Below, piece by piece: positions 6,979-39,531 of a stretch of DNA of 49,583 bases (within the stretch, counting starts at the first letter, position 1; the number at the start of each line of letters is the position of its first letter). The translations under genes were made by a program, and so were the position numbers. Source of the stretch: a virus (lineage: Duplodnaviria > Heunggongvirae > Uroviricota > Caudoviricetes). The notes beneath the pieces are model-generated. The model saw only the letters and a list, made by a program, of their open reading frames with translations, did no database searches and had not been told where the DNA came from. Location: positions 1 to 49,583 of IMG/VR virus record IMGVR_UViG_2737471854_000004, one strand, 5' to 3'.

Positions 6979-8139
6979 TTATTCAACCTCTTCTAAACTG
7001 CTCACTCTGGACCCTCGGCGGAAATTATCATCATTTTTAACATACTCGTATGAATCCAGAATCAAACCAGATATGCGAAGTATATCTTCAGGATTAGTTA
7101 TATGTATCCTTTTACCATCCGTATCAAGTCGAGCTCGTCTTATTTCATTCAACTGAACTTCACTAAGCGAAATAGGTAAAGTTATAAATGAAGATTTTTT
7201 ATCATAAAATCTTAACAGCCATCTATTGGTTTTACCATTCAATAGTACGCCGAAATATGACTCAGTATCTTTATATTCTATATTATCTTCTGTTTGTATG
7301 ATTTGTTTTACCCTTTCAAATAGCTCCAATTCTTTGGCTGTGGTTATTATGTTGGGGTTTTCTTCATCAACAATGGCGTTATTAACTTGTGTATCCGTTG
7401 CATCATTTTCTTTAGTTTGCTCTACCGGTTGTGTAGATAGCCCGGAAACCACCATTGCGCTAACAGCGCGCTCAACGGCCTGTTTAACTAATGGAGTCAC
7501 GAACTCAAGAAATCTCTGATTAAGTTGTCTCTCAATATTTGAACGACTAGCAACATATCGAACAAACTCCAGATCAACTTCACGAAGACTAGAACTGATT
7601 GTTTTAGTAAATGAATTCAAATAAACACTTTCTTCAGCCAGTGTCCGTAAAGCCTCTGGTTTGAATTTATCATAACGAAAACGAAATAATTGTGTAATAT
7701 CGGAGTGAGTTAGAGAATCCATTCTTATTTTTAAAAACGGCGTTGAATCCATTATGTTTTTTTGTTTCAAATCCGTAAAAAAACGCCATTCAACACCATT
7801 TGTAATGGCTGATATAGTAACTTCCGGTGTTGAATTAAAATATCTTGATAGCTGTGGGCAGTGATTATCAATTTGTTCTGAAAACGATTTCGCCTCAATG
7901 AACATCACAGGAACATCATGACAAAATAAAGCGTAATCAACCCGTTCATTAGCCTTAACCCCGGGGAAGTCAGCACTATACTCAGCTTTGACTTTTCTTG
8001 GATCATACGGAGTAAAACCAAGAATATCTAGTAATGGCATAATGAGTGCTTGTTTTGTCGTTTCTTCAGTTGTACAAAACACCCCCATTTTTGCAACATG
8101 CTCTGTGTGTATTTTTAACTTATTTGCAAAATTTTCCAT
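6979..8139 (-). CDS. Cargo protein with N-terminal HsdR-N/Mrr-type PD-(D/E)xK nuclease-fold domain; C-terminal domain unknown
   Basis: ORF 6979..8154; GGAGG RBS favours the second ATG (MENFANK). Motif TEETTKQALIMPLLDILGF...VDYALF...VMFIEAKS...QLSRYF. AT-rich and non-overlapping, unlike its neighbours. Confidence 0.6.
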   Translation of the reverse strand: MENFANKLKIHTEHVAKMGVFCTTEETTKQALIMPLLDILGFTPYDPRKVKAEYSADFPGVKANERVDYALFCHDVPVMFIEAKSFSEQIDNHCPQLSRYFNSTPEVTISAITNGVEWRFFTDLKQKNIMDSTPFLKIRMDSLTHSDITQLFRFRYDKFKPEALRTLAEESVYLNSFTKTISSSLREVDLEFVRYVASRSNIERQLNQRFLEFVTPLVKQAVERAVSAMVVSGLSTQPVEQTKENDATDTQVNNAIVDEENPNIITTAKELELFERVKQIIQTEDNIEYKDTESYFGVLLNGKTNRWLLRFYDKKSSFITLPISLSEVQLNEIRRARLDTDGKRIHITNPEDILRISGLILDSYEYVKNDDNFRRGSRVSSLEEVE

Positions 8140-8288
8140 GCTTGTCTCCTCCATGGTAACAATATGTATTTTGCAAATCCGAAATAATATATGTCAATAT
8201 GCTCCAGCTTAGAAAATTACTCGCCCCCCTAAAATATCTCTCTACAGCACTCCAAACCAAGGTAAAAGTTTTATCATAAAACTGTGAT

Positions 8289-21428: not shown

Positions 21429-22242
21429 GTTTGCCCTTCTCCGTTAAAAATTCGTCGGGTAGTTTCTGAGGGGCGTAGATCGGCAGAGCATCGCAACTGC
21501 AATAAACCTCCTCCCCGGCAGCAGTGATTTCGTCATAAAAACCATATACGGGCTTAATAAGCCCCTGCTCCAGCGCCCACGAATCGCGGAGGAGATAAAT
21601 TTTCTCGTCGCGCTCTTTGTGGTCCTGTCGGTATTTGTAGCCCGGACGCCGCCAGTTAGAATGCCAGCGCAGAGCAATCGCACCACTCTGAACAGCCAGC
21701 AGATACTTAACGTTGCTCGCCAGCTTATGTCCCTGGTCAATTGCCACCCGGCGACTGATAAAATCCATATCCTTCACGGACTTCTGAAAACCGGACTTCA
21801 CTTCCCGGCGATCAATTTCGCTCACCCCGTCAGGCGGAATGGACGTAACCCATCCCTGAAAACGCTGTATGGTTTTCTCGATAGCCTGTTCGCGGTTGAG
21901 TTTTATCAGGTTGGCACTGGCGAAAATTCGCCTGTCGAGTTCCTTGCGAAACTCAGGTTTCAGTTTTTCAACAGTGATTTTTTTAGGGCCGTCAGGAGGC
22001 TGATCCCGTAATGCCCCGCCGTCGATGACAAGACGGCTGTAGATAGCGGTGAGATGTTTTCTGGCTACGGTATCATCAGGGGTTTCTCGCTGAGCGGCTA
22101 CACGGAGTTTCCGGCACCATTCGAGCAATGATTTTTCGCTATCCCACCCGTGATTTACGTAGTAGTTAACGGCATCCGTCAGAACCTCATACAGCGTCCT
22201 GATCCGTTTCTTCTTCCTCCCCGCCCGGCTGGAAATTGCCAT
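21409..22242 (-). CDS. Minor head / head morphogenesis protein (F-like)
   Basis: ORF 21409..22380 overlaps the portal by 193 nt; start moved to the internal Met (MAISS...). Immediately downstream of the portal. Confidence 0.4.
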   Translation of the reverse strand: MAISSRAGRKKKRIRTLYEVLTDAVNYYVNHGWDSEKSLLEWCRKLRVAAQRETPDDTVARKHLTAIYSRLVIDGGALRDQPPDGPKKITVEKLKPEFRKELDRRIFASANLIKLNREQAIEKTIQRFQGWVTSIPPDGVSEIDRREVKSGFQKSVKDMDFISRRVAIDQGHKLASNVKYLLAVQSGAIALRWHSNWRRPGYKYRQDHKERDEKIYLLRDSWALEQGLIKPVYGFYDEITAAGEEVYCSCDALPIYAPQKLPDEFLTEKGKREFNRA

Positions 22243-23626
22243 CAGGCGTCTCCTGCTTCGGTGGTTCATAATTCGCCAGGGCGTCCACATCAATGATGAG
22301 TGGAGCTTCGCCATAGGTCTGCGTGGCATTAACAAGGCTTGCCAGCCATTCAGTGACGGCGGCACGGTTTTCAGGATCAACCTGTAGCGACACGGCAGAG
22401 AAAAGTGCTATCGCCTGTTGAATCACTTTACTGTCGCTTTCCCGGCGTTTGTCCGGCGACTCCTCCACCAGCTCCTGCCACGTCGCGGTAAACTCGCGCC
22501 GCCACTGGTAAAACGTGGTTTTATAGTCCTCGGTTATGATGTCCGGGTAATCATTTTTCAGCGACTGATAAAATTCCTCGTTCCAGGCGATGTACTGCAC
22601 CAGGCGTTCGAAATAATCCATCACAGGTTCAATCTGCTGGCGTACACCATCGATATACTGGCTGATGGCTTTCGAGTCCTCGGTTCCTTCACCGAAACCA
22701 TTCGAGAAAGCCTCCTCCTTGATGAGAATCGCGGGAACATCGCTACCTGATGCAATATCGGAAATAATGTTGTCGCGGGCGGCATTTAGCGCGCCATCGA
22801 TGTTTTGTAAATTCAGCGAGGTAACGTCCTCATCCTTCCCGATACTAAGCACACCTTTATTTTTTGCCTCTTTGACATTTTCCCTTTTTCGTCCCGTGGC
22901 GGCAGCCATGATCCCGTCAAGTTTCGAACCATACTGCACAACTTTAGCCACCAGCACGCCTGCCTTCTGGCTGACGAGATCATTCGCCTCCATCGTATTG
23001 ATATAGGATTTCAGGGAATAAAGAACGCGCTGAAACACGCTTCGCCCGGTGAATCCGAACGATGAACTCTGAAACTCCAGATAAATCGGTGTGCCATTGA
23101 AAATTTTCAGTGTGCGTGACGGATGCCAGTCTTTTCCGCCAATCTTCAGCTTTTTATTGGCTTCCTGGAAAAACGGGCTGTTTGGGTTCTGGTCAGTCAC
23201 CATCGAACCAGAAGCGTTCAACGGGTCCCACGCGTTGATATACACATCATCTTCTGTCAGTCCGAATGTCGGAAGCGGCTCACGACATGGAACACTGTCG
23301 GTGCCCACGCCGATCGCTGCGGCACCGTAGCAACGAGACAGAAAAAACAGATTTTTAATCTTCTCGTTAACCTTCATACGTTCCCATACCTCCTGGAAAC
23401 GCCGCACAACCCGCTCGTCAGGGTCTGTCTCCACGTTGTACTGACGCGGCTTACACATCGCCATAAGTATGGGTTTTTCGACAAGTTTTCCGCCCAGAGG
23501 ATGGAATTGCCACAGCTGCTTACACAATTCATAGCCAATGTCGGTTCCCGGCTGAATTTCTTCAGCCTCAAGAATATGCATCAGTGCTGAACCGAGGCCG
23601 CCAGTAATCTCGATCTCTGCCATCAA
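22187..23626 (-). CDS. Portal protein
   Basis: 479 aa directly downstream of the large terminase; acidic C-terminus. Confidence 0.55.
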   Translation of the reverse strand: MMAEIEITGGLGSALMHILEAEEIQPGTDIGYELCKQLWQFHPLGGKLVEKPILMAMCKPRQYNVETDPDERVVRRFQEVWERMKVNEKIKNLFFLSRCYGAAAIGVGTDSVPCREPLPTFGLTEDDVYINAWDPLNASGSMVTDQNPNSPFFQEANKKLKIGGKDWHPSRTLKIFNGTPIYLEFQSSSFGFTGRSVFQRVLYSLKSYINTMEANDLVSQKAGVLVAKVVQYGSKLDGIMAAATGRKRENVKEAKNKGVLSIGKDEDVTSLNLQNIDGALNAARDNIISDIASGSDVPAILIKEEAFSNGFGEGTEDSKAISQYIDGVRQQIEPVMDYFERLVQYIAWNEEFYQSLKNDYPDIITEDYKTTFYQWRREFTATWQELVEESPDKRRESDSKVIQQAIALFSAVSLQVDPENRAAVTEWLASLVNATQTYGEAPLIIDVDALANYEPPKQETPDGNFQPGGEEEETDQDAV

Positions 23627-23640
23627 AAATATCCTGATTT

Positions 23641-24969
23641 TTACAACTCCGCGTAATTACCGTGCGCGATGATCAATCCATAGGTGTAACAATCGAAAAG
23701 GTCATCAGCACGTTTATGCGCGTCTTTATCCGCCAGGTGGAATCCGGCGATTTGTTTTATGAGGTGGTTTGCGGTGGTGCGCTTGAATGAAACGGTCTTG
23801 TCGTAAGCCTCCCGGACGATTTTGCACATCCCCTGATAGTGGTAGCTGGATGCCATCACCGCCCGTTCGTCTTTGCCCTTGCTGGTTAGTGCCGATTTAA
23901 TCGGCGTCATATCCCAGCCTTCGGTTTCCGCCTTCTGGTTGAGGATTGCCCCCATCGCGGCGTCTTCCATAAAAATTCCCTGGCTGCCCAGACGCGGACG
24001 GCATAATTTCGCGAGGCGCTCAAGGTTGTCATAAACGCCGGGGATATATTCAGGAAGCAATGACGCTTTAATTTGCGTAACATCCCAGTCAATAATCGTC
24101 AGTTTTGGCTCTTCCGAATACGTTGACTCATAAGCGAAATACAACACGCCAGTACCATCATTTTCGGTCCCGCCTTTCAGCGCCGTATCCATCACTGCGA
24201 AAATCATGTCGCAGTACGGCGGCATCTCAATCGGCTGACCGTCCACCAGCAGCTTATCGACATCGAGTAACGCGTCTTTGGACCAGTCCACGAACTCGGC
24301 AAGATATTCCTGCTGCCAGACGCGCGGATCGGATTTCTTCTCCGTTTCCTCCAGTTCTTCTTTCGGAATATACGGATTCGATGAAGTTGGCGCATGGTGC
24401 ATGACAAATCCCAGGGATTCATCGTGGCATATCGCGTAGAAAAAATTGCTCTCGTCGATACCGTTTGGTGTGGAAAATACCCACGCACAGCCGCGGTAAT
24501 CGACAAGCGTCGGGCGTATAGCTCGGGGCCAGATTTCCTCGAGCATTTCCGGCGATTTAGTGAATGCTGCCTCATCAATCAGCACAGCGTGATATTTACG
24601 CCCACGCCCGGCCAGTTTGTTATTGTCCGTTACCCAAAAGTCGATGCGCCCCCCATTACGGAGAATAATGCGCTTTTCATTTTTTGACTGGCTGAGGATC
24701 AGCGGTTGCAGAACGGCGCTAATTTCATCCCAGATTTCCTGGTACTGGCGGTATTGTGCGGTAAAAATCCCCACCCTACCCGCGATAAGTTGCCCGGTGG
24801 TAGGAACGGCAAATTTCCGCGTAGCGAAACTGGTAGCGATGTTTACCAGCATCACCGTTTTACCCCAGCGACGACCACAGCATACCGCGTGGAAGCGTTC
24901 CTCTATTGCCGCCGTCCATGCAGCTATTTGCCCCTCATGAGGTTTTGGGAGGTAGATTTCAATCGACAT
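23641..24969 (-). CDS. Terminase large subunit
   Basis: 442 aa; Walker A-like CCGRRWGKT and Walker B-like VLIDEAAF; C-terminal nuclease-like region with acidic residues. Confidence 0.8.
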   Translation of the reverse strand: MSIEIYLPKPHEGQIAAWTAAIEERFHAVCCGRRWGKTVMLVNIATSFATRKFAVPTTGQLIAGRVGIFTAQYRQYQEIWDEISAVLQPLILSQSKNEKRIILRNGGRIDFWVTDNNKLAGRGRKYHAVLIDEAAFTKSPEMLEEIWPRAIRPTLVDYRGCAWVFSTPNGIDESNFFYAICHDESLGFVMHHAPTSSNPYIPKEELEETEKKSDPRVWQQEYLAEFVDWSKDALLDVDKLLVDGQPIEMPPYCDMIFAVMDTALKGGTENDGTGVLYFAYESTYSEEPKLTIIDWDVTQIKASLLPEYIPGVYDNLERLAKLCRPRLGSQGIFMEDAAMGAILNQKAETEGWDMTPIKSALTSKGKDERAVMASSYHYQGMCKIVREAYDKTVSFKRTTANHLIKQIAGFHLADKDAHKRADDLFDCYTYGLIIAHGNYAEL

Positions 24970-26050
24970 TATCCACTCCCGGCATCGGCAGAGAGTTGTG
25001 GATAATTATTTCGTTATTCTCACCACCCACGCCTTTTTTGAGGTTTTCAATCTCAGTGCGCAGCTTTTCGTTGCGAAGCCTCAGTCCTTCAAGCTCCAGA
25101 TCATTGCGACTGTCAGTTGCACCACCAGCAGAACTTCCTTTCGTCGCCATTATCAGCTTGATAAGTTCGCGCCGGGCGGCAGCCTTATCCTCCAGCAGGA
25201 TCTCAACACCAAATTTCCCGAGCTTTGCCCCTGCATATAATTGTCGCGCATCCCCATCAAGCAGAGTGGTATCAGCCATATAAAGCTGTCCCGTTCCCTC
25301 ACCGCAGCACTTCGGACAATCCGGATTGGGTATGGCGTTATCAACAAAGCCGAGGCCTCCATATTCCGGCTCGGGTTTGCCATCTCTGGAGGCCTGTGCC
25401 GCTGCCTTATCGAATTCTGCAATATCACGCCACTGGTAGAGATGATTCTCGCCCCAGCAATAACGGCAGTTAACACGGCGAAATTGTGCCAACTGATTGG
25501 GGTCGGCCTGGACAATAGCCATCAACTGACTCACCAGTAAATCCAGGTCTGCGGTATAGCGTTTCTGATACTGATTGCGGAAGTAGCTGATAGCACGATA
25601 AACCCTGGCATTTCTAAGCATACGGCTGGCGTTGCTGTTAGCTGTCGCACCTTGCCCCTCATAACCAGCCAGTCGGTATGCCTCTGTCGGCTTTTTCCCC
25701 TGAGCAACAAGCATCGCAAACTTAGCCTGCTGGTCAGAAATGCCGAATTCATCGGGGCAGAACGAAAATTCCTCCGCGTCGCCCTCATTCAGGCACGCAT
25801 CGGATACTGGCTTTTTTTTCTGAGATTTTCCGTTCCGCTTTTGCGCAGTCTGCGCAGATTTTTTCTGCGCACTTTGTTGCGCAGTTTTGCGCATTTCTGT
25901 CTGCGCATTTTTCGGAGGTTTTTTGATGTAACGACGGGCTGTTGCGTAATTCAGTCCCCTTGCCTCACACCATGCCACCGGAGATACACCGGAGCGGGTG
26001 TATTCAGCAATATATTCCTGCTGCAACGCCCCCCAGTCCGGTCTGCTCAT
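24959..26050 (-). CDS. Terminase small subunit (with N-terminal HTH and a Cys-rich zinc-ribbon-like segment)
   Basis: 363 aa; central motif FAMLVAQGKKPTEAYRLAGYEGQGATANSNASRMLRNARV resembles the terminase small subunit signature; CxxC...CxxCC cluster; overlaps terminase large start. Confidence 0.55.
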   Translation of the reverse strand: MSRPDWGALQQEYIAEYTRSGVSPVAWCEARGLNYATARRYIKKPPKNAQTEMRKTAQQSAQKKSAQTAQKRNGKSQKKKPVSDACLNEGDAEEFSFCPDEFGISDQQAKFAMLVAQGKKPTEAYRLAGYEGQGATANSNASRMLRNARVYRAISYFRNQYQKRYTADLDLLVSQLMAIVQADPNQLAQFRRVNCRYCWGENHLYQWRDIAEFDKAAAQASRDGKPEPEYGGLGFVDNAIPNPDCPKCCGEGTGQLYMADTTLLDGDARQLYAGAKLGKFGVEILLEDKAAARRELIKLIMATKGSSAGGATDSRNDLELEGLRLRNEKLRTEIENLKKGVGGENNEIIIHNSLPMPGVDNVD

Positions 26051-26053
26051 TAG

Positions 26054-26305
26054 TTAGTCCTGATTTTTATCCACCCTGAGTAGTTCACGCAGGGCAAAGG
26101 CATCCCCTTTTCTGGCAAGCTTAAACAATGCCGCCCGTAGTTCGGCTTCACCTTTCGCTCTGCCCTTACGGATGGATGCGTAAAAATCTGTCATTGCTTC
26201 CCGATTTTCTTTCAGTCGGTTCAGATCAACATCCAGAACGTCAGCGATTTGTTGTGCAGTCATCCGGCACGCTGCCAGAGACTCGACTTTCGAATACGGA
26301 ATCAT
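26054..26305 (-). CDS. Small hypothetical protein (possible HTH)
   Basis: 83-aa ORF upstream of the small terminase; start uncertain because it overlaps the upstream gene by about 65 nt. Confidence 0.25.
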   Translation of the reverse strand: MIPYSKVESLAACRMTAQQIADVLDVDLNRLKENREAMTDFYASIRKGRAKGEAELRAALFKLARKGDAFALRELLRVDKNQD

Positions 26306-27194
26306 TTGTCACCCCCATTGATATGCAGGGTGTCTTCTTCCTGTATTTTTCGTGAAGGATTTTTACTGCAGCGTTGTTCCAAGTGACCTGATGGTGAATG
26401 CGTTTATGGCTGGCCCCCATCAGTGAGATTTTTACGCACGAGGGCGCATACATGACGGAGTAAAAACTTTTAACGTAGGTTCCGGAATCCAGATACAGCT
26501 CGGTCATTCCGCCGCTGTTTTTCTGCGTCTGTTTCTGCCCTAACTGGACAGCACCGATCGTCATAAACAATTCACCACAGCGACCGAGATTCGTGTACGT
26601 ATTCACATCCTCGTTAATGCGCCCCATGAATGAGAACGGTCGATCAACCGAACAGATAAAGCTGTTCATTGCCTTGCGTTTCACCCACGAAGCATGGCCG
26701 CCATTGTCACCAAGAAAATCCCCGCCCTGCGACATAGCGATGGAAAGCGCAGGTATTGATTCGTAGTACGCCAGCATTTCAGAAAGGATCGCATCCAGTT
26801 TTCTTATCGGGAAATAGGCCTGGTCATAGTTGCGATCCACCCGAAACTGGAACTCGTGATAATCATCATCGAGCTGAATGAAGTATTTACACCCGACCAG
26901 TTTTGCCAGGTCGAAACAGGCATTACGGGCGTAAAAAATTGAGCGGCGATCACCGAAATTATCGGCTTCGTCAAAACGACTGGCTATATCGGCTTTGGAA
27001 AACACCAGCACCTGTTCACCAAATTCAGCTATGTACTGATGCCGTGTCTTATCTTCATCATCAACAACGATAAAAACTTTCCCGGTATAGCCAGCACGAC
27101 GCAACGTCCGGTAAGTCAGAACTTTGTCCGGGCGCCCGTGAGTCAGAATAAAGGCGCAAAAATCATCACGCATATTCCTCCTCCTCCCCGCCAT
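26241..27194 (-). CDS. GT-A-like (DxD) putative glycosyltransferase/nucleotidyltransferase-fold protein
   Basis: 317 aa; N-terminal strand motif FILTHGRPDKV (resembles the GT2 'PTYNRP' strand) and hydrophobic-DDD motif YFIQLDDDY; no methyltransferase motifs seen. Confidence 0.35.
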   Translation of the reverse strand: MAGRRRNMRDDFCAFILTHGRPDKVLTYRTLRRAGYTGKVFIVVDDEDKTRHQYIAEFGEQVLVFSKADIASRFDEADNFGDRRSIFYARNACFDLAKLVGCKYFIQLDDDYHEFQFRVDRNYDQAYFPIRKLDAILSEMLAYYESIPALSIAMSQGGDFLGDNGGHASWVKRKAMNSFICSVDRPFSFMGRINEDVNTYTNLGRCGELFMTIGAVQLGQKQTQKNSGGMTELYLDSGTYVKSFYSVMYAPSCVKISLMGASHKRIHHQVTWNNAAVKILHEKYRKKTPCISMGVTNDSVFESRVSGSVPDDCTTNR

Positions 27195-27957
27195 GCATGA
27201 TCTCCACCATGCGCTGCGTCATCCGGACAAATCCATTTTCAATAGCCTGCTGATAATCAATGATCACCAGCGCCGACTCCTCAAAAAGGTTCTGAATTTC
27301 AGCGGGGGCGTGAGCGTAATAGTCCGCAATTCTGCTGAAATTAAACACCGTGTGACGTTCTGCCGCGCACAGGAGGAATTTTTCGATATCAGGCTCAAGG
27401 GACGCCGAACGTATCCGGCTGACCAGCTCCTGAGTTTTCGTATCGTCGCACAGTTCACTGATATCCGGTTTATCGCCTGACGGCTCATAAACAGGCGTAT
27501 CAATTTTCGTCGTGTACGGCTCCTCCTCATTTCCTGTACCTGGCAAAACATCCGTCAACAATTCATCAATTTCTGTTGGGCTGAATCCTGTCAGGGAGAC
27601 ATCAAAATCAGCATTGATTAGGTCCGACAGCTCCATCCGTAACAGATCTTCATCCCAGCCAGCATTCATCGGCAGGCGATTATCTGCCAGGCGGTACGCC
27701 TTTTTTTGGTCATCCGTCAGACCAGACAGAACAATGACCGGAACCGAATCCATTTTGAGCACTTCAGCCGCCATAACACGACCGTGACCCGCAATAATTT
27801 CGCCCTTTTCATCAATCAGCACTGGATTAGTCCAGCCGAATTGCTTAATGCTTTCTACCAGTTGTGCCACCTGCTCAGGGCTGTGTGTCCTGGCATTGTG
27901 TGCATACGGAGATAGTTCTTGTAACGGGCGATAGACGATCTTCAATTTCTCGCTCAT
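27166..27957 (-). CDS. ParB-like nuclease domain protein
   Basis: 263 aa; N-terminal region (...LIDEKGEIIAGHGRVMAAEVL...) matches the ParB/Srx N-terminal fold; acidic C-terminus. Confidence 0.6.
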   Translation of the reverse strand: MSEKLKIVYRPLQELSPYAHNARTHSPEQVAQLVESIKQFGWTNPVLIDEKGEIIAGHGRVMAAEVLKMDSVPVIVLSGLTDDQKKAYRLADNRLPMNAGWDEDLLRMELSDLINADFDVSLTGFSPTEIDELLTDVLPGTGNEEEPYTTKIDTPVYEPSGDKPDISELCDDTKTQELVSRIRSASLEPDIEKFLLCAAERHTVFNFSRIADYYAHAPAEIQNLFEESALVIIDYQQAIENGFVRMTQRMVEIMHGGEEEEYA

Positions 27958-28557
27958 ACAGCCTCGCTTTATGAATAAAAAAGCCCACTATCGGCCAGTG
28001 CGCTGGGTGCGCGGCGGGTGCTGATAACGAGCTTTGACATTATCGCAGCCCCTCACACTGAAGGGCTGCTGTAATGCCTGTTACTCACAAATCAAACGAG
28101 CATGCTGACCACTCATTTCAATGCGTAAGTATTGTGGCTTGCCGTCAATCAACGCGGTGATTAACTTGTCACCTGTAGGTGTCCACATAATTTTCTCCTG
28201 TTTTAATGCCCCTTGCCGCCAGGCAGTTGATCAAAGTTCATCTTGATTCGGCAAGATTTAGAATGAATAAGATAAAATTGGCACACGCAGCAGAATTTCA
28301 TACTTTCCGGACGCTGACGCACCCTTCATTTTTCAGCAAAATATTCTGCTATTACAGGCGATCAGTTCTGCATACACTGCCGAACACCGTCGACAATTTC
28401 ACAAACCTGAGAAGATGTATCGAAAAGCTGGCGCGCCTTATCCAGACTGACGCATCCCGCCAGAAAAAAGGCACCAGTATCGCTACCAGTGCCCATTTCG
28501 CCGCCGTTCGCGGCATTCTGTGTGTCCAGTGTTTTCTGCTCATAACACACCTGGTTA

Positions 28558-29596: not shown

Positions 29597-29758
29597 CTTT
29601 TTCCTCCCACAAATAAAAAAGGGCCTCCAGCGGCCCGTAAAAACACCCTGTCAAAGGCACCCGCAGATGCCTTTTGTGTGGTGTTATCTGATGTGATGTG
29701 CGCCGGGCGCGGCGCGGATATGAAAAAGGCCCGCCGGAGCGAGCCATACAAAACTGAA

Positions 29759-29788
29759 TAAAAAAAACCGCCCGGTAGAGGCGGTTGG
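29759..29788 (-). terminator. Intrinsic terminator upstream of the lysis cassette
   Basis: On the - strand: AACCGCC-loop-GGCGGTT followed by eight Ts. Confidence 0.7.
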
Positions 29789-38488: not shown

Positions 38489-39318
38489 AAGATTTTATTG
38501 GCTATGAAGATACATCTGGCTCTATCGATGCAAAGTTTTATAAACTAATTCGTTCAGTCTCTCAGTATTTAAATCTAAATAGAATTGAAGTTATTTCAAC
38601 CTCAGTTTATCAGGAAGATAGAATCATTGAGGAAGTTGCCAGGAAGTTTTCTAGGCAAATATCTGGTCCAAAAAAAAGAAATCCACGAACTATTAATAAT
38701 GATATTTATGCTGCATTAACCTTATCTGATGACAGCATACACTGCGATGAAAAGGGAGTCGGTCAAATCCCTATGCTAATTACATGGGATGCAACTCAGC
38801 ACACACTCAGGAATATAGTAAGACAAAAAGATAAATATAAAGAATGGTTGGTTTACACTCCCCAAAGAGCAATTGAAAGACTTTCAATGTTAGAAATGAA
38901 AATTGAGAGCTCCGCAATTAAAGATGGTGTTTTAGCAATTATTGATGAGGATTATTTCTTCAAGGAAAACGATTCAAATTTAATCGATACTCTGGCATTG
39001 CTAGTGAAAGATGATTCCCCTGACGCCGGCGCATTAACAACTTTGATAAATAAACTATCGCAAAGGGTAACCGAGGAGTCTTTAGATTCTCAAGATATTG
39101 AAAAAGAAGCATTCAATACTTTAAACGAGATTTTAGTATTTACTTACACTGAGTTTAAAGATAATTTTAGCCAGGTAAAAATTGTTTTCAGTGATGAAAA
39201 ATATACCGACTCAATCTTTGAGATACTAACCTCAACACTTAAGCGACCTTTCGATGATTCTTCTAGAATAGAGTATAAAAATAAAATAGACGAAATAATT
39301 TCAGTTCACTTTGGTTGA
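38449..39318 (+). CDS. 3' part of the same gene in the -1 frame
   Basis: This frame is open from 38449, 324 nt upstream of the annotated Met at 38773, and overlaps the upstream ORF by 40 nt across A6/T6 homopolymers. Confidence 0.4.
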   Translation, partial: KSKPSSYNFENFLEDFIGYEDTSGSIDAKFYKLIRSVSQYLNLNRIEVISTSVYQEDRIIEEVARKFSRQISGPKKRNPRTINNDIYAALTLSDDSIHCDEKGVGQIPMLITWDATQHTLRNIVRQKDKYKEWLVYTPQRAIERLSMLEMKIESSAIKDGVLAIIDEDYFFKENDSNLIDTLALLVKDDSPDAGALTTLINKLSQRVTEESLDSQDIEKEAFNTLNEILVFTYTEFKDNFSQVKIVFSDEKYTDSIFEILTSTLKRPFDDSSRIEYKNKIDEIISVHFG

Positions 39319-39531
39319 CTGTTTGGGGAGAGGGTTCTCCCCAATTAAAGAACTTATTAACAATATCGATAAAGTTGTGAACTGTTCCCCATGGATTGAT
39401 GCAGATAGGTGCTATCAACATCCGCCTTTGGCACAAAGCGGACAACCACGCTAGCTCTACCGACATGGCTTTTCCCATTGCTTTAAGTGCGTCAAAAAAC
39501 AGTCTCCATTAAAATTTCCTCCCGGTAAAAA

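Follow-up and report, generated by a model that had tools for sequence, protein, structure and literature searches.

The window considered here, a stretch of 49,583 nucleotides (positions 1 to 49,583 of the IMG/VR virus record IMGVR_UViG_2737471854_000004), is a Rac-like lambdoid prophage of Escherichia coli that carries, close to its terminase genes, two overlapping genes on the minus strand, encoding a predicted glycosyltransferase and its dedicated partner protein. The partner gene comes first in the direction of transcription (27166..27957, -) and encodes a protein of 263 amino acids (aa), annotated in RefSeq as 'ParB/Srx family N-terminal domain-containing protein' and named ynaK in some genomes. 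It is followed by the gene of a GT-A glycosyltransferase of the TAGT family, of 310 aa (26241..27173, -), which RefSeq lists as 'GREB1-related protein'. The whole analysis is computational and combines sequence comparison with predicted structure. Both open reading frames (ORFs) had been located by a first-pass annotation of the window, and they lie at its coordinates on the minus strand; the motifs that it had singled out in the transferase, FILTHGRPDKV and YFIQLDDDY, are present in the translation.

That annotation had described the two genes as translationally coupled and had taken the transferase ORF to be 317 aa long (26241..27194, -). The start is most likely the ATG at 27173, which corresponds to Met8 of the longer ORF and gives 310 aa, since a strong GGAGGAGGAGG Shine-Dalgarno sequence lies ahead of it and since it coincides with the RefSeq start and agrees with a 310-aa cluster of 2,693 members. 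As read directly from the DNA, the gene junction (27166..27190, -) comprises this Shine-Dalgarno sequence and an 8-nt start/stop overlap, ATGCGTGA. The overlap makes translational coupling plausible whichever start is right, and relatives have comparable abutting or overlapping junctions.

The pair represents more than chance ORFs, because its Pfam scores exceed the thresholds, the ratios of nonsynonymous to synonymous substitution rates (dN/dS) are low, at 0.05-0.06 for the transferase and 0.11-0.14 for the partner, which indicates purifying selection on both, and both ORFs are intact in 80 of 80 close IMG/VR relatives. In some lineages the genes have decayed, which fits an accessory function of the pair. 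The partner is split by a frameshift, with the transferase intact, in E. coli GmM062 (L001:21113-21904) and Shigella flexneri (L086:7102-8008), and the transferase is split or reduced to a remnant in the L. delbrueckii phages phiLdb, Ld17, LL-Ku and Ld25A.

The transferase and its partner protein

The transferase matches the Pfam family PF20691 (TAGT, TET-associated glycosyltransferase) over positions 4-205 of a profile of 205, with 120.8 bits against a cut-off of 27.5 (E 9.9e-35), and the same family is carried by all 120 homologs listed. It also matches phrog_842 over its full length (E 3.7e-103), as does the beta-glucosyl-hydroxymethylcytosine (HMC)-alpha-glucosyltransferase of phage T6 (E 3.6e-85, full length). 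A profile-to-sequence comparison of the transferase directly with the T6 enzyme was not significant, so the relation between them is remote and rests on the shared Pfam and PHROG profiles and on structure. When solved structures were searched by sequence, no relative of the transferase was found. An AlphaFold2 model built from an alignment of 116 homologs, which was used instead of an earlier, shallower alignment whose model was poor in the C-terminal half (predicted local distance difference test, pLDDT, 64.7), reached a pLDDT of 90.7 and a predicted template modelling score of 0.85. Compared with solved structures by Foldseek, the model retrieved the GT-A enzymes TarP, K4CP, SunS, GalNAc-Ts and SpsA with a probability of 1.00, TarP being the best match; compared with viral models, it retrieved TAGT-domain proteins as the best matches (E down to 1e-28), a T-even-type enzyme among them.

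The DxD motif that is associated with metal and nucleotide-sugar binding is present as DDD (D102-D104; 26862..26870, -). Among the 116 homologs, R14 and D102-D103-D104 are conserved in at least 90% and N187 and D189 are invariant, and E188 is invariant in a closer set of 21 sequences. Motifs of the form R...DDD...EDY/F have been reported for phage GT-A DNA glycosyltransferases and for the trypanosome base-J glucosyltransferase JGT; here the third motif is E-D-V, with V190 in place of Y/F. From the profiles and the model, the 310-aa protein is predicted to be the catalytic subunit: a GT-A enzyme that depends on a nucleotide sugar, belongs to the TAGT family and retains its DDD site. The earlier reading of this protein as a GT-A (DxD) glycosyltransferase thus agrees with the PF20691 match, the model and its Foldseek neighbours, the profile and structure searches having led to a glycosyltransferase family and not to a non-transferase one. 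Its alternative, a nucleotidyltransferase, finds no support: TAGT scores far above threshold, no nucleotidyltransferase family was matched, and pyrophosphorylases appear just low in the Foldseek list, as expected from a known fold resemblance.

The transferase family is large, with 1,327 clusters at 50% identity (E <= 0.001), and its members are mostly basic (median isoelectric point, pI, 8.7). Some relatives are fused to class-I S-adenosylmethionine-dependent methyltransferase or Sulfotransfer_2 domains or occur as tandem copies (P0128, P0131, P0166, P0147, P0148), and tandem or elaborated transferase loci are also found (L104:3581-6161; L198:7419-9144); such fusions and tandem copies point to methylated, sulfated or multi-sugar products. 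A Rosetta-stone fusion of partner and transferase was sought among TAGT proteins of 462-551 aa, none of which matched the partner profiles; the extra parts of these long proteins are a second TAGT copy, a methyltransferase or sulfotransferase domain, or parts of no recognised kind.

Three groups of known proteins are useful for comparison. The T2/T6 beta-glucosyl-HMC-alpha-glucosyltransferase is, like the present enzyme, a phage-encoded protein of GT-A fold that belongs to PF20691 and phrog_842. The T6 enzyme adds a second glucose to alpha-glucosyl-5-hydroxymethylcytosine and needs the dCMP hydroxymethylase and alpha-glucosyltransferase genes of the same genome. Neither a dCMP hydroxymethylase nor an alpha- or beta-glucosyltransferase of T-even type occurs in the window, whereas T6 has both near its TAGT gene, and for this reason the product name of phrog_842 should not be transferred to the transferase. 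Furthermore, the gene directly upstream of the T6 TAGT gene is thymidylate-synthase-like, whereas here a dedicated partner is always present. The phage GT-A DNA glycosyltransferases linked to 5mYOX (TET-like) dioxygenases, together with kinetoplastid JGT, share with the transferase the GT-A fold, the R...DDD...ED motifs and TarP as the best solved match. They glycosylate 5-hydroxymethylcytosine (5hmC) or 5-hydroxymethyluracil (5hmU), which a dioxygenase or thymidylate-synthase homolog encoded nearby supplies, whereas the present enzyme has no such neighbour, and they have E-D-Y/F as the third motif in place of E-D-V, a comparison made with published descriptions. Finally, animal GREB1 contains a TAGT-type domain, the source of the RefSeq name 'GREB1-related'; unlike the phage transferase, it is large, multidomain and cytoplasmic, and O-GlcNAcylation of the oestrogen receptor has been reported for it. 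The name derived from it says nothing about phage function.

From the perspective of its architecture, the partner can be divided into an N-terminal ParB-N module (aa 1-145; 27523..27957, -), which includes an AGHGR box (G57-R60), and an acidic C-terminal domain (aa 146-263; 27166..27522, -). The ParB/Srx-type N-terminus that the first-pass annotation had recognised is upheld by a marginal match to Pfam ParB_N (PF02195; 28.7 bits against a cut-off of 26.3, E 1.4e-6), and residues 1-250 match phrog_620 (E 1e-89). The module aligns with the N-terminal domains of Spo0J/ParB proteins (PDB 1vz0, 4umk and 6sdk), GHGR replacing GERR. This nucleotide-binding box varies among 21 orthologs (GERR, GHLR, GNGV), G57 alone being invariant, and in the alignment of these orthologs ParB-N is the less conserved half of the protein. 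No conserved constellation of acidic and histidine residues stood out in the module across orthologs, in comparisons none of which was aimed at nuclease activity; the nuclease label that had been attached to the 263-aa protein finds no support, and the box is unconserved. A partition ParB was also considered and rejected: the match to TIGR00180 reaches 37.2 bits against a cut-off of 58.45 and is confined to the N-terminus, no helix-turn-helix (HTH) was found and no parA is annotated. Annotations as 'partitioning protein' are unsupported.

Fusions of ParB-N to DNA methyltransferases are, like the present partner, often encoded upstream of terminase genes. The N-terminal 145 residues of the partner are homologous to the N-terminal module of these prophage proteins, aa 10-145 matching the N-terminus of ParB-methyltransferase fusions in PADLOC MTase_II (1e-38) and phrog_498 (3e-51). 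The partner differs from them in that it has no methyltransferase domain, its ParB-N being joined to a small acidic domain that is paired with a separate glycosyltransferase. The fusions are reported to be enriched in prophages (PMC12704722), and their existence supports the general statement that ParB-like domains accompany DNA-modification enzymes; glycosyltransferases are not mentioned in this 2025 survey of the ParB fold. In PADLOC-DB, the transferase has no match and the partner matches the Type II methyltransferase model through its ParB-N module only, so that a reading of the pair as a defence system finds nothing there beyond this module.

The C-terminal part (approximately aa 146-250) is the strongly conserved half of the partner and the part that always accompanies the transferase. 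It begins with a linear motif, Y148-T-T-K-I-D-T-P-V-Y-E-P-S-G-D-K-P164 (27466..27516, -), which lies in an apparently unstructured segment and is preceded by a variable acidic linker. Among 119 family members, Y148, P155, Y157 and P164 of the pattern Y[TS]xK[IV]xxPxYEPxxxKP are 100% conserved, T/S149 is conserved in 98% and K in 97%; further along, within a region that includes the pattern RH...SALVIID, R201-H202, Y214, S228, D234 and G242 are also 100% conserved. The domain is uniformly acidic (pI ~4.6, net charge ~-11), matches no Pfam family above threshold and has no credible relative among solved structures by sequence. A dioxygenase was considered for it and discarded, since about 100 residues are too few, the domain appears mostly helical and neither Pfam nor PDB gave a match.

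Linkage of the pair across genomes

The C-terminal domain is very often found as a stand-alone protein of ~130-140 aa, and wherever this was examined its gene lies directly upstream of a TAGT gene. A stand-alone domain precedes the transferase among the replication genes of Vibrio phage pv27 (hhalign E 9.6e-40), and the same arrangement of stand-alone domain and TAGT occurs in three long metagenomic phage contigs, where the neighbours are a DnaB-type helicase, an N6/N4 methyltransferase, a SNF2-methyltransferase fusion, or a tandem TAGT and a lambda-type terminase. Since partners consisting of the C-terminal domain only occur, the constant pair is that of acidic domain and TAGT, and the ParB module is optional.

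Linkage was examined in both directions. Starting from the transferase, an alignment of 21 sequences was searched against a species-dereplicated genome collection, which yielded 21 loci, to which two metagenomic loci were added; in 23 of these 23 the gene directly before the transferase on that strand encodes a partner homolog and abuts or overlaps it. These loci span Enterobacterales, Desulfovibrionaceae, Thermodesulfobacteriota, Bacteroidales, Lachnospiraceae, Faecousia, Hyphomonadaceae and Thiotrichales. Starting from the partner, 79 loci were found in IMG/VR: the transferase is adjacent in 71, lies ~0.95 kb downstream in 7 and is absent from none, one locus being truncated, so that 78 of 78 informative loci have it. 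The pairing of the transferase with the acidic domain is obligate and ancient, and the 263-aa protein is a dedicated partner of the transferase. Co-occurrence in other genomes, on which the earlier proposal of a functional pair depended, is thus confirmed; what did not survive is the ParB domain as the conserved element, a role that falls to the C-terminal domain.

Individual carriers illustrate the spread. In Lactobacillus phage c5 the pair constitutes ORF1 and ORF2, directly past the cos site; it is also present in phage phi jlb1 and in Nocardia phage NTR1, in a Porphyromonas phage whose transferase is just 28% identical, and in the haloarchaeal virus HHTV-2, with 40% identity between its partner and the family in a profile alignment (E 2e-62). 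Homologs of the pair also occur in Salmonella, Klebsiella, Serratia and Bacteroides and in Lactobacillus phages. Overall, between about a sixth and a quarter of the complete E. coli genomes have the pair in a prophage, and it is carried by viruses of haloarchaea and of at least five phyla of bacteria. The downstream neighbours are usually terminase subunits. These belong to several unrelated families, and the pair therefore behaves as a mobile cassette placed on many backbones.

Variants of the locus carry additional genes. In the seven loci with a gap (L167, L171, L172, L175, L181, L182 and L183; e.g. L175:4752-5720), one gene of 322-331 aa is inserted, whose product is a fusion of a histidine phosphatase and a cytidylyltransferase-like domain; as the latter resembles heptose-1-phosphate adenylyltransferase, the inserted gene plausibly makes an activated donor. 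In Candidatus Pantoea gossypiicola, a 205-aa Methyltransf_23 protein (L088:358-975) is encoded ~390 bp upstream of the longest ORF call for the partner and may be another accessory of the module. Upstream of a stand-alone domain with tandem TAGT genes (L198:1-4560) there are genes of a C5 DNA methylase, Vsr, an EcoRII-like enzyme, a dCMP deaminase and a dCTP deaminase/dUTPase.

The linkage bears on whether the two proteins work together at all. They could have separate jobs and be neighbours by position only, the ParB-like protein aiding recognition or cutting by the terminase and the transferase being a moron that modifies a polymer of the host envelope or a small molecule. The location of the pair directly upstream of terminase genes in most loci would fit this, as would the identity of the top solved structural match, TarP, which is a prophage wall-teichoic-acid glycosyltransferase, and the cytidylyltransferase-like gene of the variant just described. 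We nevertheless consider this explanation very improbable. The linkage is complete in both directions in every informative locus, extends across phyla and to an archaeal virus, comes with overlapping reading frames, and persists away from the terminase, among replication genes; no envelope polymer is common to Gram-negatives, Gram-positives and haloarchaea. As regards conversion of the O-antigen of the Gtr type, no GtrA, GtrB or GtrC gene, and hence no membrane partner of the GtrA/GtrC type, is present in the window, where the pair is located in the late operon beside the terminase. Apart from the shared ParB-N module, neither protein matches a model of a defence system.

Prophage surroundings of the pair

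The 1.9-kb stretch around the pair is 99.9% identical to E. coli GmM062, and E. coli W carries the pair at 98.5% identity. Among 5,426 complete E. coli genomes, 1,566 have a match to this stretch, with at least 80% query coverage in 867, and the region of the pair is present in ten deposited records of Escherichia and Salmonella phages. In a near-identical prophage, the order of genes according to RefSeq is integrase, recE/recT, replication, lysis, the pair, terminase, and head and contractile-tail genes. The late operon of the window, on the minus strand, runs from holins and endolysin through the ParB-like gene, the glycosyltransferase and an ORF of 83 aa to TerS and TerL. The terminase small subunit TerS (24959..26050, -) and large subunit TerL (23641..24969, -) were assigned by Pfam Terminase_2/Terminase_6N matches. 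The small ORF between transferase and TerS (26054..26305, -; 69 aa and hypothetical in RefSeq) is listed as context and not as a shown member of the module. It matches an internal segment (positions 145-218 of 319) of phrog_309, 'terminase small subunit' (E 1.7e-22), and is by this similarity a candidate for a DNA-binding segment split off from TerS. It is overlapped by the transferase gene of E. coli at the 3' end of the latter, and the transferase has a tail of ~22 residues that is absent from other homologs.

Upstream of the lysis genes, two strong terminator-like hairpins (29728..29786, -) are consistent with a late-operon leader. No sigma-70-like promoter was found between these hairpins at 29.73-29.79 kb and the partner gene. 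Since the pair has no promoter of its own and terminator-like hairpins precede the lysis genes, it is probably transcribed with the late genes. The lysis genes are separated from the partner by 400 bp (window 27960-28360, -) that contain GC-rich hairpins and two tiny ORFs, of 35 aa (MWTPTGDKLITALIDGKPQYLRIEMSGQHARLICE) and 23 aa (MSKLVISTRRAPSALADSGLFYS). A 298-aa regulator of the AraC family (HTH_18/HTH_AraC; window 30577-31473, -), which looks like cargo, adjoins the late leader and the lysis region.

Further features of the prophage stand apart from the pair. Directly after TerL, at the position expected for the portal, lies a gene named in RefSeq 'anti-CBASS protein Acb1 family protein' (window 22187-23626, -). 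A gene of ~390 aa, in RefSeq 'type I restriction endonuclease' (window 6979-8154, -), has an odd location within the baseplate/tail cluster, where the baseplate J gene lies on one side of it and further tail genes on the other. The early region contains a low-GC insert (31-41%; window 33800-39320) that is absent from the near-identical GmM062 prophage and looks like a defence or moron island. It encodes a HEPN_LA2681 protein of 473 aa (34201..35622, -), an integrase fragment of 157 aa (36172..36645, -), a 491-aa protein with no Pfam family and a weak PADLOC PDC-S05 match alone (37013..38488, +), and a 181-aa protein of no family (38773..39318, +).

Possible acceptors of the sugar

The mechanism that we propose for the pair, tentatively and at somewhat less than an even chance, is that of a two-subunit late glycosyltransferase that would mark phage DNA. 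The two proteins would be made late in infection, alongside those for lysis and packaging; the acidic C-terminal domain of the partner would bind the basic enzyme and activate or position it; the ParB-type module, where present, would bring the complex to DNA; and the complex would add a sugar to replicated phage DNA shortly before packaging, so that the glycosylated DNA would be shielded from host nucleases. The timing would be comparable to that of Mom of phage Mu, a late function of a temperate phage that modifies DNA before packaging and protects it against restriction. This is a functional analogy only, as Mom is of an unrelated family, its adenine modification is of acyltransferase type and no homology is claimed.

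DNA as the target is supported indirectly by the TAGT family, whose characterised members apart from animal GREB1 act on DNA, by the ParB-N module that the partner has in common with DNA methyltransferase fusions, by the basic pI of the transferase, by the neighbours of the pair, which include terminases, DNA polymerase, helicases and DNA methyltransferases, and by the finding that a ParB-like protein activates a phage DNA-base dioxygenase. In these ParB-dependent phage thymine dioxygenases (O'Toole et al., bioRxiv 2025, PNAS 2026), a modification enzyme is combined with a ParB-like protein, as here. The architecture of the activator, with an N-terminal ParB fold, a variable linker, a C-terminal domain and no classical DNA-binding domain, is analogous to that of the partner, and its nucleotide-site mutants remain active, which parallels the unconserved nucleotide-binding box of the partner. 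The two systems differ in that the enzyme described by these authors is a dioxygenase and both ParB domains are required, whereas the enzyme here is a predicted glycosyltransferase and ParB-N is often absent. Judged by this analogy, the activator would be the closest mechanistic precedent for the partner.

Several points weigh against DNA glycosylation as proposed. The ParB-N module is dispensable, as shown by the variants with the C-terminal domain only, and its nucleotide-binding box is unconserved; the conserved domain, being strongly acidic, is not itself a DNA binder; and GREB1, a member with a TAGT domain, is reported to glycosylate a protein. The most important point is the missing first step. 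In the literature examined, the characterised TAGT enzymes except GREB1 use as acceptor a 5-hydroxymethyl-pyrimidine or a sugar that such a base already bears, and the base itself is the product of either a dioxygenase of TET/JBP type or a hydroxymethylase of thymidylate-synthase type. The annotation of the near-identical RefSeq prophage includes no TET/JBP dioxygenase, no dCMP/dUMP hydroxymethylase and no other pathway to a hydroxymethyl base, and the same is true of two phages with complete genomes, c5 (31.8 kb) and phi jlb1 (38.3 kb). Among 149 flanking proteins from 19 diverse loci, viewed through the 25 commonest of 65 families in a Pfam scan, no dioxygenase or hydroxymethylase recurs, the proteins being terminases, portals, clamp subunits and similar; as the view covers these 25 families, it may miss a single occurrence of such an enzyme near the pair. 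A neighbour of this type is a matter of genomic context in part of the TAGT family and is not demanded by the Pfam model. Moreover, we know of no GT-A enzyme that glycosylates an unmodified DNA base. The situation is shared by other phages: one recent paper counts 'solitary' TAGT homologs, of undefined function, in 288 of 753 phage genomes, and in a large survey of phage glycosyltransferases (GTs) about 65% of GT-containing contigs had no neighbouring 5mYOX or ThyS gene, GTs without such neighbours being regarded by its authors as less obviously DNA-directed. For these reasons, the suggestion of the first-pass annotation that the pair forms a DNA modification or anti-restriction module stays at the level of a proposal, the hydroxymethyl-pyrimidine pathway of the known DNA-acting members not having been found.

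The absence of this pathway can be accounted for in different ways. Since the module sits on unrelated phage backbones, its acceptor should be either universal or carried within the module itself. In the first case, the GT-A enzyme with its acidic partner would place the sugar on DNA without a hydroxymethyl-pyrimidine precursor, directly on a canonical base or on a universal feature such as an end, which we regard as unlikely.

Another way, which we judge improbable, is that the enzyme does act on a 5-hydroxymethyl-pyrimidine or a DNA-attached sugar and that the precursor comes from a highly divergent enzyme or is encoded elsewhere in the phage or the host. This follows the precedent of the known TAGT enzymes. 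The T-dioxygenase preprint reports thousands of profile-retrieved contigs without a TET/JBP Pfam annotation; Vibrio phage pv27, a carrier of the pair, has genes for a thymidylate-synthase homolog and a dNMP kinase in its first 50 kb; and contig L198 has genes of a dCMP deaminase and a dCTP deaminase/dUTPase nearby. The thymidylate synthase of pv27, however, adjoins a dihydrofolate reductase and would therefore belong to the ordinary dTMP pathway. Room for a hidden enzyme is scarce in the smaller genomes, since the largest gene of c5 with no function assigned outside the structural and lysis modules encodes 208 aa with no Pfam match, and the non-structural genes of phi jlb1 with no function assigned all encode less than 120 aa. 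In the window, the only sizeable proteins without a family are those of 491 and 181 aa, which lie in the low-GC island that the near-identical prophage does not have. A dioxygenase hidden in the 7-kb divergent stretch of the window was also looked for and not found among the larger ORFs of this stretch, which are HEPN, the integrase fragment, a DnaC-like protein, a DUF1376 protein and the two family-less proteins; the AraC regulator lies just outside it, beside the lysis region. To these points may be added the 19 diverse loci, near whose pairs no dioxygenase or hydroxymethylase gene recurs. As for the host, E. coli is not known to us to make hydroxymethyl-pyrimidines in its DNA.

If the acceptor is carried within the module, it may be a protein. 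In this explanation, which is the main rival although it too is unlikely, the enzyme glycosylates most economically the partner itself, whose Tyr/Thr motif would enter the active site for self-priming of the glycogenin type or O-glycosylation of the GREB1 type, and the glycosylated acidic partner would act in packaging or against host defences; in a second version, virion or packaging proteins are the acceptors. Protein glycosylation would explain why the module is self-sufficient on any backbone, as the partner accompanies the enzyme on every backbone examined and the module could thus bring its own acceptor. The conservation of Y148, Y157 (both 100%) and T/S149 (98%) in an apparently unstructured segment past a variable acidic linker is suggestive of this, and so is the reported O-GlcNAcylation of a protein by GREB1. 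The elaborations with a methyltransferase, a sulfotransferase or tandem GTs resemble the glycan tailoring proposed for mycobacteriophage capsids, and no hydroxymethyl-base acceptor is encoded in the prophage, c5 or phi jlb1. Conversely, the characterised TAGT members known to us other than GREB1 act on DNA, and the ParB-N module, which is common to DNA methyltransferases, points to DNA as well. It would be unusual for a substrate to match its enzyme stoichiometrically and to exceed it in conservation, and a role as subunit fits better. Regarding the second version, the virion proteins of the carrier phages are wholly different, so that a specific structural acceptor is improbable.

The pair is not categorically new, since TAGT is a known curated family and the ParB fold is likewise known. 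The definition of the TAGT family reportedly goes back to Iyer et al. in 2013 (Nucleic Acids Res.), and that work may already note ParB neighbours. In the databases and literature searched, no description was found of the obligate partner domain, of the dispensability of the ParB module or of the consistent absence of a hydroxymethyl pathway, and searches of the literature for ynaK/ydaY, the L. delbrueckii phages and HHTV-2 yielded no information about function or about modification of DNA.

A sugar on phage DNA is a classic counter to restriction enzymes and CRISPR (clustered regularly interspaced short palindromic repeats) systems, and defences that depend on modification target it in turn. 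In the examples described in the literature examined, hydroxymethylation or hydroxylation of the base precedes attachment of the sugar; the present module has the enzyme of that pathway without its first step, plus a dedicated partner. If the partner or another protein is glycosylated, the pair would represent a new kind of viral protein glycosylation. If DNA is modified, it would imply a new acceptor chemistry and a hidden modification in the DNA of widespread temperate phages, with a bearing on phage host range, horizontal transfer and sequencing artefacts.

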